From: Minisyncoccota bacterium
GTDB taxonomy: Bacteria; Patescibacteriota; Minisyncoccia; Phycocordibacterales; PALSA-1337
NCBI GenBank assembly: GCA_041663145.1
Contig: JBAZRG010000001.1
Span: forward strand, 74,467 to 138,466
DNA length: 64,000 nucleotides
Direction of reading: 5' to 3'
Shown here: positions 1 to 41,151 of the stretch, piece after piece
Layout: each line of letters begins with the position of its first letter
Position numbering within the stretch: position 1 is the first letter of the stretch
The notes under the pieces: model-generated
Databases searched by the model: none
The model's input: only the letters and a program-made list of their open reading frames with translations
Told to the model about the DNA's origin: nothing
Program-made: the position numbers and the translations under genes

Positions 1-421
1 TATCCAGACGATCGGTCGTGCGGCTCGAAATGCCGCCGGTCGCGTGATCTTATATGCCGATAGATTGACTGGTTCTATAAAATTCGCCATAGCGGAGACA
101 GATAGACGTCGTGCCATCCAGGTTGCATACAATAGGGAGCATGGTATTACTCCAAAAACAATAATAAAAAAGATTCACGATATTACCGATCAGTTGAGGA
201 CTGATCATGATAAGGCTGTCAATGCTCTTGTGGAAATAGATAGTGTATTGGCAGAGACCAATCCTCAATTATTGATAAAACAAAAGGAACAAGCTATGGC
301 AGAGGCAGTGAAAACCCTCGATTTTGAGACGGCCGCTTTGGTTCGGGATGAGATATCGGCTTTAGAAAAGAAATTCGGTCTAATTGTTGATAAAAAGAAA
401 GCACGTTCTAAGAGGATATGA
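1..421 (+). CDS. uvrB: Excinuclease ABC subunit B, C-terminal fragment (5' end lies outside the window)
   Basis: The frame is open from the window edge. The translation ends with a UVR domain ('LDFETAALVRDEISALEKK'), preceded by the UvrB-typical '...NREHGITPKTI' segment. Confidence 0.75.
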   Translation, partial: IQTIGRAARNAAGRVILYADRLTGSIKFAIAETDRRRAIQVAYNREHGITPKTIIKKIHDITDQLRTDHDKAVNALVEIDSVLAETNPQLLIKQKEQAMAEAVKTLDFETAALVRDEISALEKKFGLIVDKKKARSKRI

Positions 422-1251
422 TAGAATATGACAGCGACATTATGACTGAAACAAAAAAAATAAAAAAGGAGAAAATATTGGTTATAGCAGGTGATGGAGC
501 ATTCGGAGAAAAACTGACTGATCTCTTGAAAAAGGACGGATATCAGGAAGTGTTTTTGATGAAGAATGGTTCAGAAGGATTGAAACAAATTTATGATTTA
601 TTGCCACATCTTGTGATCATGGATGTAACTTTGCCTGGGATGAGTGGTTATGAGATCTTGGCTAAAAAGCTTGCTGAACCGTTATTGGCAAAGATTCCAG
701 TTTTTCTCTTGTCGACGCAAGGTTTACCGATCGATATTCGCAGTGTTCCAGCTGGAGCGGTAACCGAATATATCATGGCTTTGCACGCCGATCCTGTAGA
801 GATAGTTACGAAAGTTAATAGACATTTTTCATACGAGTCGGTAACGTCAGGCTCTCTCGAATCGGACGCCGCAGTCGAAAGGACAGGGAAGAAAAAGTTA
901 TTATGGGTCGAGGATGATAAGCTGATCGGCAATATTTTATCAAAGAAGCTAACTGCTTCAGGATTTGAACTTTTTCATGCACAAAATGGTGAAGGAGCTT
1001 TGGAAATATTAAAAACCGTTATGCCAAATGTGATTGTCGTTGACCTCATCTTGCCGGGTATGAGCGGTTTTGAGATTCTCCAAAAGATCAATGCTGATAT
1101 GAGTTTCCAAAAAATCCCGAAGATGGTTTTATCGAATTTGTCAAAGCCGTCAGACATAGAAAAAGCTCATGCTTTGGGTGCCACAAAGTTCTTGGTCAAA
1201 GCCGCTACGTCTCTGGATCAGATAGTGGCTGAAGTCAAAGCGATGTGTTAA
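418..1251 (+). CDS. Response regulator with two tandem receiver (REC) domains and no output domain
   Basis: Two CheY-like blocks are present: 'KILVIAGDG...LVIMDVTLPGMSGYEIL' and 'KLLWVEDD...VIVVDLILPGMSGFEIL'. Each has the phospho-acceptor Asp context. The start overlaps the uvrB stop (ATGA). Confidence 0.7.
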   Translation: MIEYDSDIMTETKKIKKEKILVIAGDGAFGEKLTDLLKKDGYQEVFLMKNGSEGLKQIYDLLPHLVIMDVTLPGMSGYEILAKKLAEPLLAKIPVFLLSTQGLPIDIRSVPAGAVTEYIMALHADPVEIVTKVNRHFSYESVTSGSLESDAAVERTGKKKLLWVEDDKLIGNILSKKLTASGFELFHAQNGEGALEILKTVMPNVIVVDLILPGMSGFEILQKINADMSFQKIPKMVLSNLSKPSDIEKAHALGATKFLVKAATSLDQIVAEVKAMC

Positions 1252-1309
1252 AGTTATTTTGCTCTAAAATAGCGTTATTGGAGTCATGTAACATATAGGT
1301 GGAATATAA

Positions 1310-1393
1310 GCGCAGGTGGCAGAGCGGTCAATTGCAATGGACTGTAAATCCATCGCCCTATGGGCTACGAAGGTTCAAATCCTTCCCTGCGCA
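1310..1393 (+). tRNA. tRNA-Tyr (GTA), type II with a long variable arm
   Basis: Hand-folded. Acceptor GCGCAGG/CCTGCGC. Anticodon stem ATGGA/TCCAT with loop CTGTAAA. Variable arm GCCC-TAT-GGGC. T-arm GAAGG-TTCAAAT-CCTTC. Confidence 0.8.
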
Positions 1394-1536
1394 CACGAAA
1401 AAACCGAGCTTTGCTCGGTTTTTGAGTGGGAGCAGAGCGACGCGACTGCTCGCGTCGCGAGGAAGGATTTGAAGAGTCTGAGCATGCGGCGCGAAGCGAA
1501 GCGAGCACAGCGCGAAGACTGTACCGAAGCTGTAAG

Positions 1537-1559
1537 CTTCAAATCCTTCCCTGCGCACT
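1537..1559 (+). repeat. Direct repeat duplicating the tRNA-Tyr 3' end (TTCAAATCCTTCCCTGCGCAC)
   Basis: A 21-22 bp identical copy of the tRNA-Tyr T-arm and acceptor 3' strand lies about 165 bp downstream of the gene. GC-rich hairpins lie between the two copies. Confidence 0.7.
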
Positions 1560-1699
1560 ACTTCGCAACTCGGCTAATCGCCGAGTTGCTTCGTAGTGGA
1601 GACCACACGAGAATATATTAGACAATCCATTTACATAAAAAAGACGCGGTTCTGATGTCCGCGTCGGTGTGTTTTTGTTGTCGTACAAAATCGTACGAA

Positions 1700-2080
1700 T
1701 TAGTTGCGATACATATCAATGTCGGCGAGTTCGTGTTCGAAATATGGATGAAGAAGTACTCCGTCTTTAGCATCGCACAACGACATCCATGAACCCACTT
1801 CTAAGTAGAGCAATTCTTGATAATATCGACGTTCTTCTTCCGTGATCGGACCCATAGGGTGATCGTCCCGCCACATTTTGATTTTGGCTCTGCTGTCTTG
1901 CCAATCGTACGTCAGTTCCTCGATTCTGGTCGATGGTTGTTTTTTACGAAGTATGAGTTTACTACGGATGGATGCGACAATGAACATGACGAGGCTAAAT
2001 ACAGAAAGCAAGATCAGTATCGTGAAAGAGAGTAAACAGCAATAAGTTATGAGGCTATTAACATCTGTCAACGTTTTCAT
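1700..2080 (-). CDS. Hypothetical small membrane protein (one N-terminal TM helix)
   Basis: ORF with a hydrophobic N-terminus. No recognisable family. Confidence 0.4.
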   Translation of the reverse strand: MKTLTDVNSLITYCCLLSFTILILLSVFSLVMFIVASIRSKLILRKKQPSTRIEELTYDWQDSRAKIKMWRDDHPMGPITEEERRYYQELLYLEVGSWMSLCDAKDGVLLHPYFEHELADIDMYRN

Positions 2081-2150
2081 AATCTGCTGAAATGCTACGC
2101 CCTTATGAAATACACGTCAAGATACGTGTGTGGATTGATTAGCACTTTAT

Positions 2151-3326
2151 TCAGTCGACAATAACTCTTTTCAATTCAGTCGGTATATGAACAACGATTT
2201 CATAAGGTATGGTTCCGCATAATTTGGCGATAGAATTGATCGAATTTTTGGCAGTTGGATCAGAACTGATAACTGTAACTGGTGTACCAATACTCACTTC
2301 ATTCATGTGTGATATGTCTATGGTTGTTATATTCATACTGACTCGGCCAATGATAGGGCAGGGAGTGTTCAGATCACCGACACCGATATATCCTTTATTG
2401 GAAAGTCGTCTATCGATACCTTCATAATAACCAGCGGGTATGTTTGCAATTCTCATATCTCGTGTTGCCTTGAATGTATTGTCGTATCCGACAGTTTCGT
2501 CACGTCTAAGTGTCTTTATGCCGGATATCAGAGTCTTCATCTCTAGTATGGGCTTGAGTGCCATTCCTCTCATATTTCCCAGACCATATAGACCCAATCC
2601 GAGTCTCGAACAATTGGCATCAAGATCGTGATCGATCCAATGTCCGTCCGTAGCAGATATATGGAAGTACTTTATATTTGAAAATTGAGATTTGAAATAT
2701 TCAACTGTTTTTTTCCATACATTGATTTGTGATTCGAGAGAAGTAGAATTTATATCACTGGTGTTGGAAAAATGAGACATTATTCCACAGAGTCTGATCA
2801 GGGGATTTTTGGATAATAGATCTACGGCGATACTTTCTTCTGCTGGCAATATTCCTTGTCGACGCATACCCGTATCGATTTTGAGATGAATTGAAATCAC
2901 CGAATCTGTATCTTCGATGCCACGGAGAGTTTCGACAGAACTAATTGTGAATATTATGTCGCGAAGTCTGTTTCCAAGAATTGTTTCGGGACGAGAATAA
3001 CCGATTATCAGGATTTTATCGCGTATACCAAATGATCGGAGAGCTACTGCTTCAAAAAATGAATCAACGACTATAAACGGTAGATTTTTCTCTCCTCTTA
3101 GTATATGAGCTACTTCGCGCAAACCGTGTCCATAAGCGTTACTTTTTAGTACTGGAGCAACATTATTTTGTGGTGCCAGTTTTCGGAATAGTGCGAGATT
3201 GTTCAATAGTCTGGAACGAGATATTTCGACGGTTATGAGTGGTTCATAGGGAAATCGACGTCGAGATAGCCATGTGAGGGGATTCATCATGCTTTTATTG
3301 TACTTTTTTGAGCATGTTGACGCCAC
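2151..3326 (-). CDS. alr: Alanine racemase (PLP-dependent)
   Basis: The PLP-lysine motif 'VAPVLKSNAYGHGL' is present. Length (391 aa) and overall pattern fit Alr. Confidence 0.8.
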   Translation of the reverse strand: MASTCSKKYNKSMMNPLTWLSRRRFPYEPLITVEISRSRLLNNLALFRKLAPQNNVAPVLKSNAYGHGLREVAHILRGEKNLPFIVVDSFFEAVALRSFGIRDKILIIGYSRPETILGNRLRDIIFTISSVETLRGIEDTDSVISIHLKIDTGMRRQGILPAEESIAVDLLSKNPLIRLCGIMSHFSNTSDINSTSLESQINVWKKTVEYFKSQFSNIKYFHISATDGHWIDHDLDANCSRLGLGLYGLGNMRGMALKPILEMKTLISGIKTLRRDETVGYDNTFKATRDMRIANIPAGYYEGIDRRLSNKGYIGVGDLNTPCPIIGRVSMNITTIDISHMNEVSIGTPVTVISSDPTAKNSINSIAKLCGTIPYEIVVHIPTELKRVIVD

Positions 3327-3786
3327 TTGACATATTATGTATATATGCTATAATAGCAAAGTACGAGGCTGTAGAGCCTCAATTTTGTTCCTTAAAACCA
3401 CATATGCTTGAGTAAAGCTTATTTCGCCTGTGGCGAGATTACATGTGTTTGAGGAAAACTGATAGGAAGAATATGAAAAATCGCAGGGTTACGTGGTATC
3501 ACTTTTGGGTCTTGTTGACAGTTGGCTTTCTGCTCATCATTGCGTCGAGACCATCGACGCCGATAATGACGCCGGAGCCGACGCCAGCTTCGCTTTCTCC
3601 CGAAGTGGGAGAAGTAAAGATGGTTGAGGAAGTTACAGTCCCTCAAGAAGGGATTGTGCCAACTTCGACAACGGAAACTCAAATTGTCAGCGTGATCTAT
3701 CACGCTGAACCGCAGATTCGGTGATTCAGTATTTGGTAAAATCAAACGCAGTAAAAACAAAAACAAACAAGAAAGGTAAAGGATAG

Positions 3787-11217: not shown

Positions 11218-11404
11218 TTAGAGAGTCTTTCTTGGTTTGCTAATCAGGTGAGCTGAGTTGTCAATCTGTGTGTATATTGACACATCCTATCAAAGCCGTC
11301 AATCTTTTGATTGACAAATATTCTGTGCTTGCACTGCGTAGCTCGCGATTAGCGAGCGAAGTAGTCCTCCTTCGCTCGTAGGACACGAGCTTCGGAGGGA
11401 CAAG

Positions 11405-11486
11405 TGCCGGGAGGGAGAATCGAACTCCCATGGATTACTCCGCACGATTTTGAGTCGTGTGCGTCTACCAATTCCGCCATCCCGGC
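11405..11486 (-). tRNA. tRNA-Leu (CAA), type II
   Basis: Minus-strand reading GCCGGGA...TCCCGGC-A. Anticodon loop CTCAAAA, long variable arm, T-loop TTCGATT. Confidence 0.8.
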
Positions 11487-11546: not shown

Positions 11547-12521
11547 ATGACAAGCCAATATGTTAATGACGCTATTTTCTGGATTGAAATAGACAAAATC
11601 GCTCCAAATCCCTATCAACCTAGACGAGAATTTGATCCGCTGGCGCTCAAAGCTCTATCGGAATCGATTCGTATGTATGGTGTTTTGCAACCATTGGTTG
11701 TTACTCGAAAAGAGGTTTTTCGTGATGAGGGGGGAATGACGGTCGAGTATGAACTCATTTCCGGCGAGAGAAGATTGCGTGCCTCTAAGCTGGCTGGACT
11801 TCAGGCAGTGCCGGCCCTCATCAGAAATGGTGAAGAGAATGCTCAGGTCAAACTCGAAATGGCAATCATTGAGAATCTTCAAAGAGAGGATCTAAATCCA
11901 GTCGAAAGAGCGCGTTCATTCGAACGATTGTCAAAAGAGTTTGGTCTCAAACAATCCCAGATCGCAGATAAGATGGGTAAGAGTCGCGAATATGTTTCAA
12001 ATTCGATGCGCATACTTTCACTACCTGATGCCATGATCAATGCCTTGGAACAGGGTCGGATCTCCGAAGGGCATACCAGACCACTACTCATGCTCATCGA
12101 TCGTCCGGAAGAACAACAGGTATTGTTCATGGAAATCATGACGAAGAAATTGACCGTTCGCGAAGCCGAGTCTATGTCTCGACGAGTTGCCACCGAGAAG
12201 ATTCGCAATAAGAACAAATATCTCGATCCACAGATAATGGAAATGGAGAAAAATTTTACTCAGTCCTTGGGTACCAGAGTCAGGATAGAAAAGAATAAAG
12301 ACGGCGGAACCGTTACAATCGATTTCTTCAGTCCCGATGATCTGCGTGGTCTTCTTGAACGTTTGAGTAATGAGAAAAGTGAAGTTACGAAAACTGAAAA
12401 TAAGAGTTCAGATAAAAGCGATGTTCTTGGTGGCGAAAATGCTATCGATGATCGTGCTCCTCTCGAAGTGGAGAAAGAAGAAAATGAAGAGATCTATTCA
12501 TTAAAGAACTTCTCGATCTAG
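11547..12521 (+). CDS. parB: Chromosome partitioning protein ParB/Spo0J
   Basis: ParB box 'ISGERRLRASKLAGL' and an HTH region. The acidic/Lys-rich C-terminal tail is atypical. Confidence 0.8.
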   Translation: MTSQYVNDAIFWIEIDKIAPNPYQPRREFDPLALKALSESIRMYGVLQPLVVTRKEVFRDEGGMTVEYELISGERRLRASKLAGLQAVPALIRNGEENAQVKLEMAIIENLQREDLNPVERARSFERLSKEFGLKQSQIADKMGKSREYVSNSMRILSLPDAMINALEQGRISEGHTRPLLMLIDRPEEQQVLFMEIMTKKLTVREAESMSRRVATEKIRNKNKYLDPQIMEMEKNFTQSLGTRVRIEKNKDGGTVTIDFFSPDDLRGLLERLSNEKSEVTKTENKSSDKSDVLGGENAIDDRAPLEVEKEENEEIYSLKNFSI

Positions 12522-14842
12522 ATCTTTTCAACGACTTTCTTTTTTGCAAAACCTCTTTGCTTTTTCGGTTGAGCTAATATTTCCAACGCTCTCTCGAATG
12601 ACAATGAATAGATATCGTCAGGCGCTTTTACGGATCTAAAATCTGCATCATTTCTGACATACGGACCAAAACGTCCGATAGAGGCGACGATAGGATTGCC
12701 TGTTTTCGGATCAGTGCCGAGAGTTTTTGGCAGACTGAGATATTTGAGAGCGTCCGCTACTGTAACCTTCGAAGGATCCATCGTTTTTGGAATCGAAGCC
12801 ATTCTCGGTTTGATCGCTTTTACTATTTTTACTGGCTCTGTATCAATTCCGACGTCACCAGTTACTCCTATTGCACCTGTCACACTTGCTGATACAGCTT
12901 TTTTCGGCTTTTTTGCACGAGGTTTTTTGACTTTCGGCTCACGAATGCCTAGTTGTACATATGGACCGTATTTGCCATTCAATACAAATATCGGAAGGCT
13001 TGATTCCGGATCTACTCCGATCGGTTCGTCTTTTTTGAATTCGGTACCGTCCAACGTGAGCGCTCCATCGCAATCCGGATATTTTGAGCAGGAGAGGAAT
13101 TTGCCATTTTTACCCAACTTGATTTCCATCGGTGTGTTGCCACATTTCGGACATTTGTATTTCGGGTCTGCTGAGCCAAGATTGGTGATCTTTTCTATTT
13201 TGTCTTTTGATTTTACATCTTTATGAAATGGTCCATAAAAATCAGTCAGAGTTTTCAAATATGTTCGTGTTCCAGTCGCTATATCATCGAGCTTATCTTC
13301 CATCTCCGCGGTAAAAGAGTCGCTGATATAGGTAGGGAAATTTTGTTCTATGAATGAAGATACGACATCGCCGGTATCGGTCGGATGAAGTGATTTGTTT
13401 TCTTTGGAAACATAACCACGATCTTCGATGGTCTTCGATATCGATGCGTATGTCGAAGGACGACCGATGCCACGTTTTTCCAGTTCTTTGATAAGTCCGG
13501 CCTCGGTATATCTCGAAGGCGGTTCGGTCTGTTTTTCTTCTTTATCTACGCGCAGAAGATCGAGTTTTTCGTCCTTATTACATTTCGGCAATATATTTTG
13601 TTCGCCGACTGATTCTGGATCGGCTTTGAGCCAACCGTCGAAAATGACACGTGAGCCAGTGGCTTCAAAATCAGGAATGGTTGATTGACCAGCTTGAATA
13701 TTTGCGATTATTTTTGTTCTGGCAAGTTTGGCATCGGCCATTTGTGAAGCTACGGCACGTTGCCAGATCAGACGGTAAAGCTTTTTTTGCTCATCATTGT
13801 GACCGGCTGATTCTTTTACAAAATGAGAAGGACGAATAGCTTCGTGTGCTTCCTGGGCATTTTTACTTTTTGCTGCGTATTTTTGAAATTGGATGTAATT
13901 CTTACCATAAGTTTTCTCGATGACCGCACCGATCTGATCTAGAGCTTGTTGACCGAGATTTGTCGAATCCGTTCGCATGTAGGTGATATAACCGGACTCG
14001 TAGAGTTTCTGAGCGATGCCCATAGTACGTGATGGAGAAAAACCGAGTCGTGAACTGGCGGCTTGCTGGAGTGTGGATGTTATAAATGGAGCACGGGAAG
14101 AACGTTTCTGTTCTGATTCCTCTATATTTACAATATGCCACGGTTCCTTTCGGGCAATCTCAAGTATCGATTCGACTTCTTTGGAGTCGCGTGGTTCCTT
14201 GGAACAAAAAAGTTCTACTTCATCGCCGGAGACAGTTTTCCACATGCCGGAGATTCTCCAATAGGTTTCTGGAACGAATGCTCGGATCTCTCTTTCACGT
14301 TCCATGATGATGCGTAGTGCCGGAGATTGGACACGCCCGGCTGATAGGCCGTAACGGACTTTTTTCCAGATCAATCCGGAGAGATCATAACCGAACAGTC
14401 GGTCTAGGACGCGTCTGGCTTCTTGAGCTTCACGGAGATGTTCATCGATGTCGCGTGGCTGTTTCAAGGCTTCCATAACGGCATCTTTTGTGATCTCATG
14501 ATATGTGACACGCTTCATCTTCTTGGCGATGCCTGCACCGAGTCTTTCCTTCAGAACTTCGGCAATATGCCAAGCTATTGCTTCTCCTTCACGGTCGGGG
14601 TCTGTAGCGAGAATGATCTCATCGGCTTTGGCGGCATTCATGGCTATGTCAGCAATGACATTTTCTTTTTTAGCCACAACTTCATAGTGGGGAATAAAAC
14701 CACCTTCGATGTCTATAGCTTTCTTACTAGACTTTGGTAGGTCACGGACATGTCCAACTGAAGCACGTACCACAAATTCGTCTCCGAGATATTTGGAGAT
14801 TGTTTTTGATTTTGAAGGTGACTCGACGATCATCAATTTCAT
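12518..14842 (-). CDS. topA: DNA topoisomerase I
   Basis: TOPRIM N-terminus 'LMIVESPSKSKTISKYLG', active-site Tyr region, C-terminal Zn ribbons (CPKCG...C..C) and a Lys-rich tail. 774 aa. Confidence 0.9.
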   Translation of the reverse strand: MKLMIVESPSKSKTISKYLGDEFVVRASVGHVRDLPKSSKKAIDIEGGFIPHYEVVAKKENVIADIAMNAAKADEIILATDPDREGEAIAWHIAEVLKERLGAGIAKKMKRVTYHEITKDAVMEALKQPRDIDEHLREAQEARRVLDRLFGYDLSGLIWKKVRYGLSAGRVQSPALRIIMEREREIRAFVPETYWRISGMWKTVSGDEVELFCSKEPRDSKEVESILEIARKEPWHIVNIEESEQKRSSRAPFITSTLQQAASSRLGFSPSRTMGIAQKLYESGYITYMRTDSTNLGQQALDQIGAVIEKTYGKNYIQFQKYAAKSKNAQEAHEAIRPSHFVKESAGHNDEQKKLYRLIWQRAVASQMADAKLARTKIIANIQAGQSTIPDFEATGSRVIFDGWLKADPESVGEQNILPKCNKDEKLDLLRVDKEEKQTEPPSRYTEAGLIKELEKRGIGRPSTYASISKTIEDRGYVSKENKSLHPTDTGDVVSSFIEQNFPTYISDSFTAEMEDKLDDIATGTRTYLKTLTDFYGPFHKDVKSKDKIEKITNLGSADPKYKCPKCGNTPMEIKLGKNGKFLSCSKYPDCDGALTLDGTEFKKDEPIGVDPESSLPIFVLNGKYGPYVQLGIREPKVKKPRAKKPKKAVSASVTGAIGVTGDVGIDTEPVKIVKAIKPRMASIPKTMDPSKVTVADALKYLSLPKTLGTDPKTGNPIVASIGRFGPYVRNDADFRSVKAPDDIYSLSFERALEILAQPKKQRGFAKKKVVEKI

Positions 14843-14883
14843 ATGTTGAGTAAGTATTGCATGATAATTATTTTTTGCAAAAT

Positions 14884-15780
14884 CTATATAGACGTATTGA
14901 TCCTGTATTTACCTTCATCTTCGGTCACAAGATCTAGGAGTTCTAGCTGTGAGATCTCAATATTTAGAGCTGGAGATGAGATCTGGATCTTGTCCAGAAG
15001 TTCTGAGGAGTTTTGTGGAGCGTACCGGAGAATTTGAAGTATCTTCTTTTGTTCATCGGACAGGGACGCGGGTATTATAATCTCGGTTTGAGCGTCATCT
15101 TTTTTCATGGAGTTTTTGGGAATATCAAAACCGAGTGCATCTAGTATATCTTTGGCTGAGAACACCGGTATAGCGCCTTCTTTGAATAGATTGTGAGGAC
15201 CGACTGACAGATCGGAAAATATAGATCCTGGTACGACTAATACGTCCCGATTGAACTCCAGAGCGTGTTTGGCAGTGATGAGTGTACCCGAATCATGCCG
15301 ACCTTCGATAATGAGGGTTGCGTGAGAGATCCCGGCCATCAGACAATTTCTGACAGGGAATGTCCACATAGTCGCTCCCTGTTCGTATTCAAATGGAGAG
15401 AGCAATGTCTGACCTTCACGTATCATCTTATCAGCTAGTGATAGTCGAGTTCTGGGGTACAAAACTTCACGAGATAGACCAGAGCCTGGTATGCCGATCA
15501 CTCTCATGCCAACCTTGAGAGCTTCGGCATGGGCGATCGAATCTATGCCGATAGCCAGACCGGAGACAATGACGATCGGGTAGTCTTTTAGTCTACGAAT
15601 GAGTCTTACGCAAACATCATGCCCATATTTGCTATAATTGCGCGCGCCGACAACGCAAAGATATCGAAATTCTTCTTGGGACGGCGGTAAAGAGCCCGCA
15701 CAATACAGAGTTTTTGGAGGTTTATCTATTTCCAAAAGTAATCTAGGATATTGTGATTTGTTGAGCAATATGGTTTTCAT
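14884..15780 (-). CDS. dprA: DNA processing protein DprA/Smf
   Basis: Rossmann-like 'VVGARNYSKYGHDV...IVSGLAIGIDSIAHAEAL'. The dprA-topA pair is a conserved synteny. Confidence 0.75.
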   Translation of the reverse strand: MKTILLNKSQYPRLLLEIDKPPKTLYCAGSLPPSQEEFRYLCVVGARNYSKYGHDVCVRLIRRLKDYPIVIVSGLAIGIDSIAHAEALKVGMRVIGIPGSGLSREVLYPRTRLSLADKMIREGQTLLSPFEYEQGATMWTFPVRNCLMAGISHATLIIEGRHDSGTLITAKHALEFNRDVLVVPGSIFSDLSVGPHNLFKEGAIPVFSAKDILDALGFDIPKNSMKKDDAQTEIIIPASLSDEQKKILQILRYAPQNSSELLDKIQISSPALNIEISQLELLDLVTEDEGKYRINTSI

Positions 15781-19023: not shown

Positions 19024-20070
19024 TTGATGAAGAAAAAAGCGGTAAAGGCGCATATGGCTCCGAAAAAGCAGTCATTTTGGAATAAGCTTTGGAATAAGCT
19101 CGGGAGGCCTTTTTTCGTCTTGGCTCCTATGGCAAATGTGACTGATCTGGCATTTCGATCAATGATCGCCAAGTACGGTAAACCTGATGTGATGTGGACA
19201 GAGTTTGTCTCGGCCGATGGACTAGTCTCAGAAGGGAAAGTAAAATTGTTGATCGATCTTAAATTTAACAAAAAAGAAAGACCGATTGTTGCGCAATTGT
19301 TCACGGGTCATCCGGAAGTGATGAACAAAGCGGCGATGATCGTTCAAGATCTAAAGTTTGATGGTTTGGATATCAATATGGGTTGTCCAGATAGAAGTGT
19401 TGAGAAACAGGGAGGCGGCGCGGCTCTAATGAAAAATCCTCAAAAGGCGATTGAAGTGTTGAATGCTGCCAGAGAAGGTGCTCCCAAAATTCCAGTATCC
19501 GTAAAGACAAGGATCGGATATAACGCAATTGATATGGACTGGATTTGTACACTTTTGGAACAAAAATTACCGGTTCTGACTGTGCATTTGAGAACACGCA
19601 AAGAAATGTCGGATGTGCCCGCGCATTGGGATCTGATGCCGGAAATCATAAAGATGCGCGATTCTATCAGTCCGGATACTCTCATTATCGGTAATGGTGA
19701 TGTGGATTCTGTAGAAGATGGAATGAATAAATGTAAAGAAACTGGTTGTGATGGTGTGATGGTTGGTCGAGGTATATTTGGCAAACCCTGGTATTTTAGT
19801 TCGATTAAGAATCACAAAAAAACGATAAAATCAGAAAATCTTACAGAAGAGCGAAGTCCAGAATTTCGAATGAAATTGCTTTTAGAACACGCTATATTAT
19901 TTGAAAAAGCGTTTTGTGGCAAGAAGCGTCTAAAAAGTTTTGATGTAATGAAAAAACACTTCAAAGCTTATGTCTCTGGTTGGGATGGAGCAAAAGAGAT
20001 TCGGGTGGAATTGATGAATGCAGAAAATGCTGGTGATGTGAAAGTGGTAATTAGAAGATATCTGAAATAG
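19024..20070 (+). CDS. tRNA-dihydrouridine synthase
   Basis: TIM-barrel Dus motifs 'LAPMANVTDLAFR' and 'GLDINMGCP', with the catalytic Cys context. Confidence 0.8.
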   Translation: MMKKKAVKAHMAPKKQSFWNKLWNKLGRPFFVLAPMANVTDLAFRSMIAKYGKPDVMWTEFVSADGLVSEGKVKLLIDLKFNKKERPIVAQLFTGHPEVMNKAAMIVQDLKFDGLDINMGCPDRSVEKQGGGAALMKNPQKAIEVLNAAREGAPKIPVSVKTRIGYNAIDMDWICTLLEQKLPVLTVHLRTRKEMSDVPAHWDLMPEIIKMRDSISPDTLIIGNGDVDSVEDGMNKCKETGCDGVMVGRGIFGKPWYFSSIKNHKKTIKSENLTEERSPEFRMKLLLEHAILFEKAFCGKKRLKSFDVMKKHFKAYVSGWDGAKEIRVELMNAENAGDVKVVIRRYLK

Positions 20071-21643: not shown

Positions 21644-22684
21644 GTGGACATGGCAGTATTATATAGAACACACCGTCCTTCAGTCTGGAATGAAGTCGTC
21701 GGACAAGATCAGGTTACAGACTCGCTTAGAGATGCCGTAGACAGTGGACGTGTGGCACATGCCTATCTGTTTTCCGGATCACGTGGTACTGGCAAAACAT
21801 CGGTGGCTCGCATATTGGCTGGTGCTCTCTTAACATCTGGTGAAGATGTCTATGAGATCGACGCGGCCTCGAATCGTGGTATAGATGATATACGCGAACT
21901 CAGGGAACATGTTTCGATCTTACCTTTTAGCTCCAAATACAAAGTCTACATCATAGACGAAGTCCACATGCTCTCAAAAGAAGCTTGGAATGCGCTTCTG
22001 AAAACTCTGGAAGAACCGCCGGTACATGTTATCTTTATCCTTGCTACGACTGATTTGGACAAAGTTCCTGATACTATCATCTCCCGTTGTCAGACTTTTG
22101 TCTTTCGTAAGCCATCGAGAGAGATCTTGCGCAAGGAAGTGACGAGAATAGCAAAAAAGGAAGGTTATGATCTGGATCTCGGTGCCGCGGATCTCATAGC
22201 ACTACTTGGTGACGGCTCATTTCGAGATGCGCTCGGAATGTTGGAAAAAGTGATCTCTGCATCAGGGGACCAAAGTTCAAAGACAAGCAAGCAGATCAGT
22301 CGTGAAAAAGTCGAATCTATCACAGGTGCGCCTAGAGCAGAGCTGGTGAACTCTTTTATCGAAGGACTTATGGCAAAGAAGAGCGACGATACCCTTGGTG
22401 TTATATGCGAAGCGGAAAAAGCTGGTATCTCGATGAATATTTTTGTGACTCTGATATTGGAAAAATTACGTTTCATCCTGATCATGACACATTCAAAGTC
22501 ATCTGAGGTGAATATTAAAGATCGCCTCTCGCCGGATGATCTAGAATTCGTAAAAAAGCAGGCAGAAACCAAACTTCTGACTCCATCCATGCTCTACGCC
22601 ATGCTCGAAGCGGCTGAAGGCGTTTCTCGAGCAAAAATCGAGCAATTGCCCCTAGAGTTGGCTGTCGTGAAGATTTGTGGTTAA
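21644..22684 (+). CDS. dnaX: DNA polymerase III subunit gamma (short form, no tau extension)
   Basis: 'YRTHRPSVWNEVVGQD', Walker A 'GSRGTGKTS', 'DEVHML', and sensor 'SRCQ'. Confidence 0.8.
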   Translation: MDMAVLYRTHRPSVWNEVVGQDQVTDSLRDAVDSGRVAHAYLFSGSRGTGKTSVARILAGALLTSGEDVYEIDAASNRGIDDIRELREHVSILPFSSKYKVYIIDEVHMLSKEAWNALLKTLEEPPVHVIFILATTDLDKVPDTIISRCQTFVFRKPSREILRKEVTRIAKKEGYDLDLGAADLIALLGDGSFRDALGMLEKVISASGDQSSKTSKQISREKVESITGAPRAELVNSFIEGLMAKKSDDTLGVICEAEKAGISMNIFVTLILEKLRFILIMTHSKSSEVNIKDRLSPDDLEFVKKQAETKLLTPSMLYAMLEAAEGVSRAKIEQLPLELAVVKICG

Positions 22685-22865
22685 ATTGTGAAGATGCGAT
22701 AGTGTGTAGTAACATTTACAATCTTGCGGGCTCCTCCTTCGCTCTTGCAGAGCTACGGAGGACACAGTCGTCTAATGGGTGGGTCGCCTACGCTTGCTGT
22801 CGCAAGCTTCGGCGGACCGAAGTCGTCTTGGTGATCGTTATACTGTGTAGTTACATTTACAACTT

Positions 22866-22936
22866 TGCGGGCTCGTCTAATGGTAGGACTCCTCCCTTTG
22901 AAGGAGGCTATTGGGGTTCGAATCCCTGGCCCGCAG
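22866..22936 (+). tRNA. tRNA-Gln (TTG)
   Basis: Acceptor TGCGGGC/GCCCGCA. Anticodon stem CCTCC/GGAGG with loop CTTTGAA. T-loop TTCGAAT. Confidence 0.75.
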
Positions 22937-23081
22937 CAAATAAATTACATAAAACAATAATATGAAAAATAAAACTCAAGTATTCATGATTCACGGAGGA
23001 ATGACTTTCAAAAACAAGAGAGATTATTTACATTTAGAATCAATAAATTAAATAATATGGCAACAATATCATATAATATCT

Positions 23082-23597
23082 ATGAGTAAAAAATATATAT
23101 GTGACGGAACAAAATATGAGATTGGTGGCCCGAAGGCTGATACAATAGGTTTACCAGTTTCTATTATGGGTCAACCTTTAAAGATAAGTGTAGAAGGCTA
23201 TGAATTACAGTTAAAATCATCATTCCACATTAGTCTCGTTTGTATCGGTAAGATGATTGAGAAGCATAAGATATCTATTCCTGATTTTGTAAATAAAGTC
23301 ATTGAAGACTTCTGTAGCTATGTTAGTACTACGGAAATAAATTTTTTGAAATATCGTAATGAATTTAGATTCGTCTCACAAAATGAAAGGCGAACCATTG
23401 TTGCAATGTGTGATATTTCTAATCTAAAAGAGTTTTTTGACTTGATTAACAAAAAGTATTCCTTGAAAGTTGAATATCAACCTACACATGTAACTATCTA
23501 TACCTTGCAACCAGAATTAGGCATCTTTCTATCTGACAGTAATGATTTACGGGAGCTTACAAAGGTAATTCCTAAGCCTGAAGGTGTGAATATATAG
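23082..23597 (+). CDS. Possible 2H-phosphoesterase (LigT-like) family protein
   Basis: Two H-x-S/T-x motifs ('FHISLV' and 'THVTIY') spaced about 90 aa apart. A 29-codon ORF upstream (about 22985-23075, 'MKNKTQVFMIHGGMTF...') looks like a gene fragment. Confidence 0.35.
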   Translation: MSKKYICDGTKYEIGGPKADTIGLPVSIMGQPLKISVEGYELQLKSSFHISLVCIGKMIEKHKISIPDFVNKVIEDFCSYVSTTEINFLKYRNEFRFVSQNERRTIVAMCDISNLKEFFDLINKKYSLKVEYQPTHVTIYTLQPELGIFLSDSNDLRELTKVIPKPEGVNI

Positions 23598-28446: not shown

Positions 28447-29082
28447 TCAGAATAAATTTCTGGCATTTTTTCTTAATTCCTCAAATTTTTCTTTATCAAG
28501 AAAGCCTATTTTTTCGACATGACGTCGAGTATCGATTGATCGTATTTGAGAAAGAAGAGCTGACGCATGCTTTGTGTCGACTAGTCCAACAGGTATACGT
28601 AGATGATGTTTGTTGGGAGATGATGTTAGGGGGATAACCATGCATATTCTTGGTCCAAATTCTCGAATGATTACACATGGACGTAGAAATTCTTCACCAC
28701 TTCCGTCTTGTTCAAAACCAATATTGACTCCTAATCTACACCACCATATCTCTCTTGTTGTATATAGACGCTTCTCTTCAAGTTCTGCTTTTTTCTTTTT
28801 TGAATTCCATTTATCAAAATCTTTAGAATCAAGGTCTTTGTCAATCAAAGAAAATCTTATCCCATATTCTACTTCATATTCCAGATCTTTAATATGATTT
28901 TCAGCTTTATCTATTGCCAATCTTATAAAGTTAAAATCGCCGAGATGTTGTATATCCAAATCACTTTCATAATCTTTCTCAGAAACCCTAAATTTATCTA
29001 AGGAAATTTCTTCGATTTTTATATAATTGTTTGCACTCATAATAATTTGGGATAATTTTATTCTTAATTTTAGAAATAGCAA
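28447..29082 (-). CDS. MazF/PemK-family toxin fused to an acidic N-terminal extension of about 100 aa
   Basis: C-terminal 'REIWWCRLGVNIGFEQDGSGEEFLRPCVIIREFG...ICMVIPLTSS...HLRIPVG' matches the MazF/Kid pattern. The N-terminal 100 aa are D/E-rich. No separate antitoxin ORF is adjacent. Confidence 0.65.
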   Translation of the reverse strand: MLFLKLRIKLSQIIMSANNYIKIEEISLDKFRVSEKDYESDLDIQHLGDFNFIRLAIDKAENHIKDLEYEVEYGIRFSLIDKDLDSKDFDKWNSKKKKAELEEKRLYTTREIWWCRLGVNIGFEQDGSGEEFLRPCVIIREFGPRICMVIPLTSSPNKHHLRIPVGLVDTKHASALLSQIRSIDTRRHVEKIGFLDKEKFEELRKNARNLF

Positions 29083-33395: not shown

Positions 33396-33995
33396 CTACT
33401 TTAGTAATGTAGGCTGGATTTTTTCAAAGTCAAAAAGCTCAGAGTTCCTTATTAGAATGGTTTTATTTGTTGTAAATGATATTCCCTTATTAGGATTGTC
33501 TTCAAAGCCTAAATATATGCAACTTACAGTCCTATCACGGATTTCCTTAATGGCAGGCTGTAAATCAGAATCAGAACTCGCCAATATAATTTCTTTTACC
33601 TTTTTATCGCAAGAATAACTGACCATATCCACCGCAATCTTCACGTCAACACCTTTTTCTTTGAATACCAGTACTTTTTTACCGTTAAAGCCATCTTCCA
33701 TCTGTCCTCTAACCCTACCGCTTAATATAACCTCGAATCCCTGAGCTTCGAGATGTGTTTTTAGTAAACGCTGTTCCTCAATTAGCTCTTGGGATTTGTC
33801 GTGGCTATCTTGGTGTGCCTTTATGCGGGCAAAATAAAATACTTTTCTATCTATATTTATATCTTTCAGGACTTTATCAAAAAGCCCTTTGAAGTTGTAT
33901 TCATTCCAGACGATTTTCTTTTTACGAGCGTCCTTGAAAACAGTTCGAATTTTGCCTTTGAAGTTTTCGCCGTCAATGAATAGCACTGTTTGCAT
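33396..33995 (-). CDS. NYN-domain (LabA-like) protein
   Basis: 'MQTVLFIDGENF' N-terminus and '...KGVDVKIAVDMV...ILASSDSDLQPAI', which is the NYN/PIN-like Asp constellation. The start is moved to the Met at 33995; the track ORF extends to 34133. Confidence 0.6.
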   Translation of the reverse strand: MQTVLFIDGENFKGKIRTVFKDARKKKIVWNEYNFKGLFDKVLKDINIDRKVFYFARIKAHQDSHDKSQELIEEQRLLKTHLEAQGFEVILSGRVRGQMEDGFNGKKVLVFKEKGVDVKIAVDMVSYSCDKKVKEIILASSDSDLQPAIKEIRDRTVSCIYLGFEDNPNKGISFTTNKTILIRNSELFDFEKIQPTLLK

Positions 33996-34339
33996 AATAA
34001 GGCCTATTTTAGCAGAAAATGGCTCAGCAACGCAAAACCCCAGCGGACCGTTAGGCTGGCTGGGGCGTGTATATAGACACTTTACTCTTTTTGACATTAA
34101 AGTCAATCGAGTAACTGTGGATACCTGAAGCACCCATTTGTAAGACGATTGCTTGAATGGTTTGCTGCACTTACTTGTTGAACTTACTGAGTTCTAGACT
34201 GAAGCTCGTAAATTCAATTCCTATCTCCAGTTACGAAATTAACCCATACTATGATCAGCACAAATCCGCCAAATGATGTATAGTAACGCAGCTAATGGCA
34301 AAATAGTCCAAAAAATGATTAAAAACATAAAACAAATTA

Positions 34340-39878: not shown

Positions 39879-40162
39879 TTGCGGTTGCTCGTCTTACCGT
39901 CCAGTCATCATAGTCGAAGTCTCTGGAAGACTTTGGGTGCACGCATCTCTTCATGAGCGCATGCACTAACGAGTCGAAACGAACAGTTTCAACCCAACGT
40001 CCCAATTAGGGAAATGTTTACTATACTCTTAGAGTGTAGCTTTACAGGAACTATTAAAAGTGCCCATAAAGCTACACAAGAAAAGTTGTGTGTATACTTG
40101 TTATAATATGTCAAAAAACTATATGCTAACATCATAGCATATTCGATATATAATGTCAAGTG

Positions 40163-40235
40163 CTCCGCGGGTAGGATTCGAACCTACGACCAATCCCTTA
40201 ACAGGGGACCGCTCTACCAACTGAGCTACCGCGGA
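40163..40235 (-). tRNA. tRNA-Asn (GTT)
   Basis: Minus-strand reading TCCGCGG...CCGCGGA-G. Anticodon loop CTGTTAA. T-arm GGTTCGAATCC. Confidence 0.8.
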
Positions 40236-40478
40236 ATGTTGTATCTATATGGTTTTAAATATTTCGTGATGTGTCTACTTGTCCTTCGTAGCTCCGAGTT
40301 TTACGAGGAGCGAAGGAGGACCAAGACAGCTACCGCGGAATATGTTTTACACTGGAACGATCTTCACTATCAAATGTCAAGCTATGTTTCTCGCGCTCGA
40401 CATGAGAGAATGTACCATATAGTCATGACGAAATCAAAATCATCGAACTGGATTAGTGTCATAATAGAAGACTAGGAT

Positions 40479-40691
40479 ATGTTGATCAAAGTAAAAGTAA
40501 TAACAGAGGCCAAGAGGGAATCTATAAAGGAGGTGACTCACGATAGTTTCCGAGTATCTTTGACTGAAGCGGCGGAGCAAGGTCGGGCCAATGGACGTTT
40601 ATTGGAAATAATGAGAAAATTGTACGCAAAGAGATCAATTAAAATAATAAAAGGTCATCATTCGAGGAGTAAGATTTTGGAAATTGTATAG
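40479..40691 (+). CDS. DUF167/YggU-family protein
   Basis: The 70-aa sequence 'IKVKVITEAKRESI...AAEQGRANGRLLEIMRKL...IIKGHHSRSKILEI' fits the UPF0235 pattern. Confidence 0.55.
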   Translation: MLIKVKVITEAKRESIKEVTHDSFRVSLTEAAEQGRANGRLLEIMRKLYAKRSIKIIKGHHSRSKILEIV

Positions 40692-40767
40692 AAAGCAGTA
40701 TAGTAGATATAGGAGTAGTTCCTTTGTTCATTAATAGCAAGTCGCCGCGTAATACATAAAAACAAAC

Positions 40768-41151
40768 ATGAACATAAACATCAAGACTACATCGATCACT
40801 CTCACTCCGGCAATTTCAGAATACGTTGCAAAGCGCCTAGATAAGATCGGTAAATTGCTGGGTAACGATCCTTCGATTCAGTGCGATGTTGAATTGGCTA
40901 GGACAACTGAACATCATCAGAAAGGTAATATATTTCGCGCCGAGATTCACATAGTAGGTTCAGCCAAAAATGCTTATGCCAGTTCAGAGGAGACCGATCT
41001 ATATTCCGCTATTGATACCGTCCGTGATGAAATCCTGCAGGAGATTCGAGTCGGTAAAGGTAAAAAAATATCTCTGATTCGACGCAGTGGAGCCAGATTG
41101 AAAAATATGGTAAAGGGTCTTTGGTCTTGGAGACGATCAAAGTCATTGTAA
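40768..41151 (+). CDS. hpf: Ribosome hibernation promoting factor / RaiA family
   Basis: 'MNINIKTTSITLTPAISEYVAKRLDKIGKLL' is typical of the S30AE/HPF N-terminal domain. Confidence 0.7.
   Translation: MNINIKTTSITLTPAISEYVAKRLDKIGKLLGNDPSIQCDVELARTTEHHQKGNIFRAEIHIVGSAKNAYASSEETDLYSAIDTVRDEILQEIRVGKGKKISLIRRSGARLKNMVKGLWSWRRSKSL

Follow-up and report, generated by a model that had tools for sequence, protein, structure and literature searches.

Why does the beginning of a transfer RNA (tRNA) gene occur twice, with the second copy lying upstream of an intact gene? This question is raised by the tRNA-Asn locus of a 64,000-nucleotide stretch of DNA, here called the window (contig JBAZRG010000001.1 of assembly GCA_041663145.1, positions 74,467 to 138,466 of the forward strand). 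The window is chromosomal DNA from a metagenome-assembled genome of Candidatus Paceibacterota, a member of the Candidate Phyla Radiation (CPR, or Patescibacteria). It carries bacterial housekeeping genes, among them those for PriA, Fmt, Def, HPF, DnaX, TopA, ClpB, UvrABC, MreB and SerRS. An initial annotation had attributed the duplication to a family of small elements that target tRNA genes. That interpretation is partly supported: it is largely right, but too narrow. The explanation favoured here is that a non-autonomous element was inserted between nucleotides 12 and 13 of the tRNA gene, duplicating its target and leaving the tRNA intact. The element would resemble repetitive extragenic palindromes (REPs), REP doublets forming hairpins (REPINs) or MITEs (miniature inverted-repeat transposable elements). 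A probability of roughly one half is assigned to this explanation.

The duplicated start of tRNA-Asn

The window contains seven tRNA genes, none of which encodes CCA. The gene for tRNA-Asn, on the minus strand, forms one side of a 243-bp divergent intergenic region; a DUF167/HPF operon on the plus strand forms the other. The locus is made up of the following features.

40162-40235, minus strand: intact tRNA-Asn (anticodon GUU), CCA not encoded; called by ARAGORN and by the Rfam tRNA model (72.6 bits)
40224-40237, minus strand: proximal copy of the direct repeat, tRNA nucleotides 1-12 plus 2 leader nucleotides, continuous with the remaining tRNA
40238-40327, minus strand: insert of exactly 90 bp between the repeats, made up of a 7-nucleotide linker (GTCTTGG), the hairpin and a 43-nucleotide AT-rich tail
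40277-40322, minus strand: hairpin of the CTWCG family, on the same strand as tRNA-Asn; found by regular expression and by covariance model R1 (42.6 bits, E=1.5e-9), and folding with both DNA and RNA parameters
40328-40341, minus strand: distal, orphan copy of the direct repeat, tRNA-Asn nucleotides 1-12 plus 2 leader nucleotides, with degenerate similarity continuing to 40320 (D-loop TTGGT)

The repeated 14-mer, AGCTACCGCGGAAT, is present at just two places in the window, 104 bp apart. The initial annotation had recognised this duplication, although it placed both copies one base too low and counted all 14 bases as tRNA. The repeat actually consists of two leader bases followed by tRNA nucleotides 1-12, or AT+TCCGCGGTAGCT on the tRNA strand. 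Shuffled sequences yield 0.28 matches to the 14-mer with two mismatches permitted, so its exact recurrence within 104 bp is not due to chance. Similarity between the copies reaches 22 nucleotides at 86%, with three central mismatches (40216-40237 against 40320-40341), and a 2-nucleotide indel adds five further nucleotides upstream (AACAT).

The arrangement of direct repeat, hairpin insert, direct repeat and tRNA is real, and the hairpin lies, as had been proposed, in the interval between the copies. On the tRNA strand it reads GTCCTCCTTCGCTCC-tcgtaaaactc-GGAGCTACGAAGGAC, and its 41-nucleotide stem-loop occupies 40281-40321. The 90-bp insert holds no terminator-like or convincing promoter-like site (the terminator scan covered 39900-40800), so that read-through is possible.

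Contig L001, from a separate short-read assembly of the same sample (Logan), is identical through the orphan, the hairpin and the start of tRNA-Asn. The locus is therefore not an artefact of one assembly. Contigs L001, L214 and L215 (SRR18595301) terminate within the tRNA-Asn, tRNA-Gln and tRNA-Tyr loci, which fits repeats breaking the assembly graph.

Another repeat is found in the same region. A 22-nucleotide motif containing CTTGACAT has three copies on the minus strand, at 40094-40115, 40139-40160 and 40360-40381. One copy lies directly 3' of tRNA-Asn and is an 11/12 match to a sigma-70-like promoter (TTGACA-17-TATGAT); another lies about 20 nucleotides upstream of the orphan.

The hairpin family

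The hairpin belongs to a family with a recognisable signature, to which all the hairpins picked out in the initial annotation conform. It begins with an outer stem of about 5-7 bp, the pentamer CTWCG and an inner stem of 3-9 bp without mismatches; the loop has 3-11 nucleotides, and beyond it come the second strand of the inner stem, CTWCG again and the second strand of the outer stem. The same pentamer is present on both arms in direct orientation; between a C-G and a G-C closing pair this leaves a symmetric 3x3 internal loop of pyrimidines, UUC facing UWC. A regular expression built on this signature matches six times in the window, where shuffled sequences give 0.12. All six are at four of the seven tRNA loci, those of Asn, Gln, Leu and Tyr; the tRNA-Trp, tRNA-Ala and tRNA-Pro loci have no hairpin. 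The cores matched are as follows.

1561-1593, plus strand: core at tRNA-Tyr
11337-11361, minus strand: first core at tRNA-Leu
11370-11394, plus strand: second core at tRNA-Leu
22737-22757, plus strand: first core at tRNA-Gln
22788-22811, plus strand: second core at tRNA-Gln
40287-40315, minus strand: core at tRNA-Asn, CTTCG.CTCC.loop11.GGAG.CTACG

Covariance model R1 was built from 42 family members, with the six window copies in its seed. A filter-free scan of the window with R1 returned the six seed copies (E<=1.6e-7) and nothing further below E=0.1. In the 42-sequence alignment compensatory changes support the stems: both sides vary in 11 of 15 pairs, scores as high are reached in none of 500 shuffles, and sliding the register gives much lower values. 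This covariation comes mostly from the variable extension of the inner stem, since the search pattern fixed part of the arms. Five of the six hairpins in the window take the expected fold when DNA or RNA parameters are used; for the second tRNA-Leu hairpin the inner stem alone is supported by folding (z-score -0.5).

The consensus is (g)TCCTCC-TTC-GCTC-loop-GAGC-TWC-GGAGGAC-AAG, with C preferred at -2 and A or T at -1 of the 5' flank. It reads like part of a tRNA. The inner stem, GCUC...GAGC, is that of a usual D-stem, and the reverse complement of the 3' arm, TCCTCCGTAGCTC, resembles tRNA nucleotides 1-13 (a 7-nucleotide acceptor strand, U8, A9 and GCUC). The 5' arm is the same as the reverse complement of the 3' arm, with TTC replacing GTA.

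Several familiar structures were considered for the hairpin and rejected. An intrinsic terminator does not fit: there is no U-tract, the tail of the hairpin is CAAG, and no terminator-like site is present in 39900-40800 or 22500-23100. An archaeal bulge-helix-bulge (BHB) intron or split tRNA, in which two tRNA exons are united by excision at a motif of 3-nucleotide bulge, 4-bp helix and 3-nucleotide bulge, is ruled out because the tRNA is complete without splicing (ARAGORN, Rfam). The tRNA-Asn hairpin can be drawn as an hBHBh' motif (GTCC/TCC/TTCG/CTCC...GGAG/CTA/CGAA/GGAC), but the consensus of the family prefers an outer stem of 7 bp and an internal loop of 3x3. An archaeal origin was likewise discarded, the genome being bacterial (Paceibacterota, with PriA, Fmt, DnaX and sigma-70-like promoters). 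Rfam models match solely tRNAs in the window at the gathering threshold, and at E<=1 they match nothing over the hairpins or inserts of nine related loci.

Distribution of the family

The initial annotation allowed that the motif might be absent elsewhere, which is not the case. A subfamily pattern, TCCTCCTTCGCTC-N(3-25)-GAGCTWCG, is found in at least 120 metagenome contigs and in ten viral contigs, and the GC content of the metagenome contigs ranges from 0.30 to 0.70 among the matches listed. In 1.22 Mb of other CPR genomes, fetched via Fmt homology, R1 finds only about 5-10 copies; this genome is therefore enriched about ten-fold.

The term "tRNA-targeting" has to be widened. The hairpin family is genuine and recurs at tRNAs, but only about 13% of the hairpins in the metagenome loci are within 250 nucleotides of a detected tRNA, most being far away. 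Those near a tRNA occur in both orientations with similar frequency. Copies are also found at a 5S ribosomal RNA (rRNA) gene, nested one hairpin in another or in tandem in some contigs, and in frame within protein genes. Convergent inverted doublets with hairpins 30-110 nucleotides apart are present in seven contigs (L101, L125, L135, L169, L171, L177 and L209).

At least two hairpins lie in frame within open reading frames (ORFs), in an Fmt gene (L078) and in an ORF resembling superoxide dismutase (SOD; L081). In L078, at 2980-3012, the hairpin encodes an insertion in Fmt (SPFAKA...) that is lacking in seven orthologues, and a second palindromic insertion (RHPELVSGSISEKDPDIRQD) follows 10 residues after it. 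In L081 the in-frame CTWCG hairpin is at 11799-11831.

In these diverse contexts the family behaves as selfish palindromes of the REP/REPIN, MITE or Rickettsia palindromic element (RPE) kind do. The hairpin is a member of a widespread REP/REPIN- or MITE-like palindromic family that is unusually dense in this Paceibacterota genome.

A BLAST search of the consensus hairpin against the PLSDB plasmids gave no match. There was no evidence for a phage-borne attachment site (attP): the ten viral matches are mostly low-complexity coding sequence or solitary copies, and of two junction-specific scans of viral contigs one gave a chance match and the other was uninformative. Searches of the available literature with the hairpin sequence, its translated peptides, and MITE, tRNA and Patescibacteria terms found no description of the family.

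Two further contigs with a CTWCG hairpin may be mentioned. In L003, at about 2380-2470, a different long palindrome (gtcattcccgcgaaggcgggaatccaggatc ... gatcctggattcccgccttcgcgggaatgac) adjoins the hairpin, which points to several co-resident families of palindromic repeats in CPR genomes. In L096 (GC 0.67) some 25-30 tRNA genes form an array at about 380-3520, which closes with a hairpin right after the CCA of the last tRNA-Pro.

Duplicated tRNA ends at other loci

Is the duplication at tRNA-Asn peculiar to this locus? Sequence abutting the 5' end of the hairpin recurs within 450 nucleotides downstream for 28 of 143 hairpins; the offset control gives 3 of 143. Repeat and hairpin are separated by 0-1 nucleotide in the majority of these 28.

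The architecture seen at tRNA-Asn recurs in six unrelated metagenome contigs, each with the junction after tRNA nucleotide 12 and a complete tRNA downstream, so that seven loci including that of the window share it. The contigs concern tRNA-Arg-GCG (L101, with two tandem units), tRNA-Lys-CUU (L111), tRNA-Glu-CUC (L121, also with two tandem units), tRNA-Met (L143), tRNA-Pro (L189) and one more (L169). In all six, tRNA nucleotides 1-12 run straight into TCCTCC...; the window tRNA-Asn has the 7-nucleotide linker instead.

Particularly telling is a 105-nucleotide doublet called E1, in which a spacer joins hairpin A to hairpin B, the latter inverted. E1 is found at four different tRNAs in four contigs, and the copies in L101 and L111 are 96% identical. 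E1 is flanked by the local tRNA's own 12 nucleotides, starting exactly at nucleotide +1, at the Arg (L101), Lys (L111) and Glu (L121) genes, and in L169 by another tRNA-like 5' end. Since the element is nearly identical and yet the repeat matches the local tRNA, the repeat derives from the target and not from the element. Moreover, the tandem arrays of L101 and L121 consist of n elements and n+1 repeats. Together, the locus-specific repeats and these arrays argue that the repeat was copied from the target at insertion.

The tRNA-like gene past E1 in L169, at about 13600-13730 on the minus strand (GGCCGATGTAGCTCAGTTGGCAGAGCAACTCCATGG...), is not called by ARAGORN. It may have a long insertion or an intron after the anticodon region.

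A second type of junction is found at the other end of tRNA genes. At six loci (L096, L155, L135, L209, L150 and L191) CCA and hairpin adjoin exactly. Two of them, L135 and L209, show a 21-23-nucleotide copy of the tRNA 3' end 30-50 nucleotides further on. The tRNA-Tyr locus of the window and L191 show another order: the tRNA, an insert opening with a terminator, an orphan 3' end of 16-23 nucleotides, and the hairpin.

The direction of these duplications is not random. Among 112 tRNAs, ten have the 5' end repeated and five the 3' end repeated in the "correct" direction, whereas the mirrored control (5' end repeated downstream, or 3' end repeated upstream) gives none. An orphan with CCA where the gene has none would speak for an RNA-mediated origin; the tRNA-Tyr orphan of the window ends like its gene, and in the contigs with CCA-hairpin junctions CCA is gene-encoded anyway.

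Hairpins also join each other. Nested copies join after GCTC(T), and tandem copies after a 4-nucleotide tail (CAGG or CAAG) in the place of NCCA. Read in this way, the element's own insertion points would mirror those in tRNAs (after nucleotide 12 and after CCA), which suggests a machinery that may recognise a feature common to tRNA genes and the element.

Orthologous tRNA-Asn loci

If the 14-mer were a conserved promoter element, as the initial annotation considered, relatives would be expected to carry it twice as well. The closest Fmt homologue outside this genome has only 63% identity, which makes alignment of intergenic DNA with an orthologous locus impossible, and the architecture alone was compared. 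The comparison set comprised 13 other CPR genomes with tRNA-Asn downstream of fmt. Ten of them have a single copy of the 5' region (L002, L005, L006, L011, L014, L016, L017, L018, L023 and L031). In the remaining three the 5' end is duplicated around different inserts. The repeat of L007 extends from about -4 to +23, with an insert of 150 nucleotides; those of L027 and L030 extend from about -4 to +13, with homologous inserts of about 100 nucleotides. L031 is as near to L027 and L030 as those two are to each other, yet it has no 5' duplication.

The 14-mer is not a conserved promoter element, as the mirrored control also indicates; it marks a recurrent insertion site. The sole conserved feature of the leaders is AYAT right before nucleotide +1, which explains the two extra bases in the repeat.

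The 3' side of the gene has a history of its own. L006 and L030 carry 155-nucleotide inserts there, in which a terminator is followed by the tRNA 3' end in inverted orientation and then by a 16-17-nucleotide orphan. Past the orphan lies a promoter-like sequence, cTTGACA/gTTGAC, which in the window directly follows tRNA-Asn; the window is therefore the empty site for the L006/L030 3' event. The 3' insert of L006 and the 5' insert of L007 have in common a 24-nucleotide block (87.5%) and a 10-nucleotide block, in the same order.

Two of the leaders contain inverted copies of the tRNA start. In L017, at about 19125-19190, there is an inverted copy of tRNA nucleotides 1-13 (GAGCTACCGCGGA) 9 nucleotides before +1, and in L011, at about 12290-12355, one of nucleotides 4-16. 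Both could pair with the 5' end of the tRNA.

Other tRNA loci of the window

The likeness to the tRNA-Gln locus, claimed in the initial annotation, is real. The features of that locus are as follows.

22703-22732, plus strand: orphan of the tRNA-Gln upstream region and first nucleotides, 27 of 30 identical
22730-22767, plus strand: CTWCG hairpin 1, within the Gln orphan at about tRNA nucleotide 8/9; regular expression, and R1 at 47.8 bits
22767-22783, plus strand: resumption of the Gln orphan past hairpin 1 as D-loop-like GTCGTCTAATGGGTGGG
22781-22821, plus strand: CTWCG hairpin 2, abutting the end of the Gln orphan at about tRNA nucleotide 22; regular expression, and R1 at 35.5 bits
22844-22873, plus strand: functional copy of the Gln repeat, running into the intact tRNA-Gln at 22866-22937

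The Gln orphan, which is degenerate, has a length of about 44 nucleotides (about -22 to +22), and hairpin 1 entered it secondarily. In this it is unlike the loci with a junction between nucleotides 12 and 13.

At tRNA-Leu and tRNA-Tyr the hairpins are 3' of the tRNA, not 5'.

1310-1394, plus strand: intact tRNA-Tyr
1536-1558, plus strand: orphan of the last 21-23 nucleotides of tRNA-Tyr, 141 nucleotides past the gene
1554-1603, plus strand: CTWCG hairpin abutting the tRNA-Tyr orphan
11327-11368, minus strand: first hairpin of a head-to-head CTWCG pair
11363-11404, plus strand: second hairpin of the pair, which lies directly 3' of tRNA-Leu
11404-11486, minus strand: tRNA-Leu(CAA)

The 141-nucleotide insert 3' of tRNA-Tyr (1395-1535) opens with a hairpin resembling an intrinsic terminator (about 1396-1424). 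It also contains a 9-bp GC hairpin (GCGACGCGA...TCGCGTCGC) and, at 1461-1474, an inverted copy of the tRNA-Tyr T-arm that is able to pair with the orphan 3' fragment. The 3' side of tRNA-Asn in L006 and L030 has the same layout.

A model for the insertion

In the favoured explanation, a non-autonomous DNA element of about 90 bp, with the CTWCG hairpin as its leading end, would have entered the tRNA-Asn gene between nucleotides 12 and 13. The insertion would duplicate its target, namely tRNA nucleotides 1-12 and a few leader bases, and the upstream 14-mer would be the orphaned duplicate. Staggered cuts about 12-19 bp apart, followed by fill-in, could produce such a duplicate.

The duplicated segment extends to tRNA nucleotide 1, so the downstream copy is a complete gene. 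Selection would presumably retain only events whose duplicate reaches nucleotide +1, restoring the tRNA. The old promoter would read through orphan, hairpin and spacer, and RNase P would cut at the proximal nucleotide +1, releasing a normal tRNA-Asn. The element would be mobilised in trans, by an enzyme that is not among the window genes.

Several observations weigh against this model. No transposase, integrase, reverse transcriptase, Cas1 or HUH domain was found among the 58 window ORFs scanned. Likewise, about 2 Mb of fetched loci contained no autonomous element with these ends, that is, inverted hairpins bracketing a gene. The repeats are 12, 14, 17, 19, 27 and about 44 nucleotides long at 5' ends and 16-23 nucleotides at 3' ends, and such wide variation is atypical for a single transposase. 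The 123 solitary hairpins have no flanking 4-8-bp duplication; insertion of a hairpin alone therefore does not duplicate the target. Conversely, the 5' inserts of L007, L027 and L030 lack a CTWCG hairpin, so that the duplication process and the hairpin family may be separable. Exact-protein look-ups led to one further assembly only, from the same sample and with contigs broken in the tRNA loci, which precludes an empty-site comparison.

One locus departs from the model altogether. In L192, at about 1550-1900, the DNA between the repeats includes the true 3' end of a 5S rRNA gene together with its long processing stem, and a simple model of an element between target duplicates fails there. The hairpin of this locus, 3' of the 5S gene, is abutted by a 23-nucleotide copy of an internal 5S segment, and the 5S gene is intact.

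Alternative explanations

The locus could instead be the scar of site-specific recombination, which is unlikely though plausible. A circular element whose attP contained the 5' end of tRNA-Asn would have recombined with the gene, as in the Campbell model, and would later have been reduced to about 90 bp or to a cis-mobilisable mini-element. Among elements that integrate into tRNA genes, variable blocks of identity from the crossover point to just past the tRNA end are typical, and here too the repeats end at a variable distance upstream of nucleotide +1. The scar fits best at the 3' inserts (tRNA-Tyr, L191, L006 and L030). These open with a terminator directly after the restored tRNA and end with a 16-23-nucleotide orphan followed by native downstream sequence, like attL...attR. 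Furthermore, tRNA-Asn is over-represented among the duplicated tRNAs of the unbiased loci (4 of 13, versus 1 of 28 others), and the same site is used in the related L027 and L030 and empty in L031. An element-borne attP cannot, however, explain E1, 96% identical at two tRNAs and flanked at each by that tRNA's own 12 nucleotides. The 64-kb window yielded no integrase, and a unit of 90-117 bp is too small for a plausible recombining circle. Integrases that target tRNA genes are not known to use the gene's 5' side as a sublocation.

A different, hitherto undescribed kind of insertion system might recognise tRNA genes by their structure, acting on a tRNA-derived element family present across bacterial phyla including the CPR; this is a decidedly unlikely alternative. 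The hairpin would then be a tRNA-like palindrome that is joined after nucleotide 12, where the D-arm starts, or after CCA, with the adjacent 12-23 nucleotides being copied. The orphans do match the 5' and 3' boundaries of tRNA fragments. The mechanism could be a "ruler" integrase of the Cas1/casposase kind acting on the 5' side, or a joining or template switch of RNA or single-stranded DNA onto the 3' ends of tRNA fragments.

The duplication and the hairpins could also be products of two unrelated processes. In a highly transcribed gene, slippage, unequal exchange or repair would produce a local tandem duplication of the 5' region, and REP-like hairpins would later colonise and erode the upstream copy, which is dispensable. 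At tRNA-Gln, the D-loop-like sequence past hairpin 1 implies that this hairpin was inserted in a longer pseudo-copy without a duplication of its own, and in L093 the repeat is longer and its upstream copy holds an additional hairpin. Solitary hairpins are never flanked by duplications, hairpins nest and occupy ORFs like independent invaders, and duplications also surround inserts other than CTWCG. What makes this account improbable is the precision of the junctions. The junction lies exactly between nucleotides 12 and 13 in seven independent loci, and tRNA nucleotides 13-76 do not follow the hairpin, a result that random erosion would not produce. The close abutment of repeat and hairpin in most of the 28 cases, and the presence of the same 105-nucleotide element between repeats at four different tRNAs, point the same way.

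It is very unlikely that the structure is a functional leader of the precursor tRNA, in which the hairpin would mimic the acceptor stem and D-arm and, with the decoy 5' strand, modulate tRNA folding or processing, for example by offering RNase P a site of entry or cleavage or by protecting the 5' or 3' end. The tRNA-like design of the hairpin, with its D-stem-like inner stem and an arm (TCCTCCGTAGCTC) like tRNA nucleotides 1-13, would suit such a role. So would the exact abutment on the mature CCA end at at least six loci, where a cut of the RNase P kind would make the tRNA 3' end, and the inverted copies in the L017 and L011 leaders. In L027 and L030 the orphans have kept full identity to the tRNA though the inserts have diverged by about 40%, and a predicted fold lets the orphan pair with the 3' acceptor strand. 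Nevertheless, ten of the 13 orthologous loci do without such a leader, which is therefore dispensable, and three of the seven window tRNAs have none. Near tRNAs the hairpins of the metagenome loci are found in both orientations with similar frequency, and most copies are far from any tRNA, some within ORFs.

Finally, a chance repeat or an assembly artefact is almost certainly not the answer: although short-read contigs from the same sample break in the tRNA-Asn, tRNA-Gln and tRNA-Tyr loci, as regions hard to assemble would, the 14-mer far exceeds its shuffled expectation, the independent contig L001 is identical across the region, and the same architecture is present in many unrelated contigs.

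Comparison with known systems

The REPIN concept comes from PMC3116915 and PMC3337134. The CTWCG hairpins are similar to REPs and REPINs in being short (30-45 nucleotides), extragenic and non-autonomous; in both, the palindrome is imperfect, a mismatch or internal loop being conserved. They too form inverted doublets with a short spacer as a unit (E1, and in L125, L135, L171 and L177), E1 aligning to its own reverse complement. Single copies lack a short target duplication, and the palindrome is repeated, with 6 copies in 64 kb and presence in at least 120 metagenome contigs. REPs have a conserved GTAG-type head, 5' of the palindrome, which REP-associated tyrosine transposases (RAYTs) recognise. 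In the present family the conserved core is CTWCG, on both arms; the complementary strand reads CGWAG, giving GTAG, within CGTAG, only in copies where W=A on that arm. A REP system also has its cognate RAYT, a Y1 transposase whose gene is single-copy and usually has REPs at its sides. The differences are that the sequence is another one, that no Y1_Tnp/RAYT or other transposase domain is found among the 58 window ORFs, and that the distribution spans contigs of GC 0.30-0.70 including CPR bacteria. We know of no report of REPs that are flanked by 12-23-nucleotide duplicates of tRNA ends, nested, or in frame in ORFs.

MITEs, which are deletion derivatives of DDE insertion sequences, have terminal inverted repeats. 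In E1 the two ends agree at 11 of 16 positions (CCNNCTWCGCTC), and a single hairpin can be viewed as two terminal inverted repeats facing each other. Unlike MITEs, the hairpins have no fixed short target-site duplication (123 are solitary, and the repeats, where present, measure 12-44 nucleotides), and neither an autonomous partner in about 2 Mb of loci nor a transposase in the window was found.

With casposons, the 14-15 bp duplicated at the target are terminal nucleotides of a tRNA gene, adjoining a hairpin arm (PMC9939771). Their tandem insertions are parted only by the duplicated segment, and the casposase integrates short oligonucleotides or single-stranded DNA with the right ends (PMC9939771). 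Integration by a Cas1 casposase is the closest mechanistic precedent. The target duplication of 12-19 bp likewise consists of tRNA terminal nucleotides beside a hairpin arm, and the tandem E1 arrays of L101 and L121 have their parallel in casposon arrays. The repeats measure 14 nucleotides at tRNA-Asn, 12 for E1 and 16-17 at L006 and L030, and lengths up to 44 nucleotides also occur. Casposons lie at the tRNA's 3' end, on the T-arm side, whereas the commonest site here is the 5' end, between nucleotides 12 and 13 on the D-arm side. They are also self-synthesising elements of 8-20 kb with cas1 and polB, mostly archaeal; the inserts described here are 40-150 bp, their duplication length is not constant, and no cas1 or polB is found among the window ORFs.

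Elements that use a tRNA gene as attB, such as phages, integrative and conjugative elements (ICEs), genomic islands and cis-mobilisable elements (CIMEs), share with these loci the tRNA-end repeats, the intact tRNA, the far orphan, a preference for tRNA-Asn and, on the 3' side, inserts opening with a terminator. The known integrases, however, replace the 3' part of the tRNA, while in the present loci the duplicated part is the 5' one. Inserts of 90-160 bp contain no integrase, neighbouring ORFs have no recombinase domain, and the same element (E1) has different, locus-specific repeats.

RPEs, finally, are small palindromes in frame in protein genes and next to or in RNA genes. They differ in size (100-150 bp), in their restriction to Rickettsia and in their unrelated sequence. 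We are aware of no described association of RPEs with duplication of tRNA ends.

Other observations

Two further genes of the window deserve mention. A PemK/MazF toxin domain forms the C-terminus of a 211-residue ORF with a long N-terminal extension (28447-29082, minus strand), and an NYN-domain protein is encoded at 33396-34133 (minus strand). In the CPR-like contig L007, Rfam matches LOOT RNA at 14783-14904 on the minus strand (83 bits, E=3e-14).

Significance

Small palindromic non-autonomous repeats are already known as a kind. What appears to be new is the CTWCG core, the spread into CPR bacteria, the junction between tRNA nucleotides 12 and 13 and the accompanying duplication of the 5' end.

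In practice, short-read assemblies can be interrupted at tRNA loci by the orphan tRNA fragments and the hairpins. These also create spurious ORFs and in-frame peptide insertions, and they could be misread as split or intron-containing tRNAs.

If the favoured explanation is true, CPR and other environmental bacteria hold tiny palindromic mobile elements that annotation has missed. Such elements would enter essential single-copy tRNA genes without destroying these genes, by copying the first 12 or the last 16-23 nucleotides. This would be a 5'-side mirror of the 3'-side targeting of tRNA genes by integrases and casposases, and the precise junction between nucleotides 12 and 13 would offer a concrete handle for finding the enzyme responsible.

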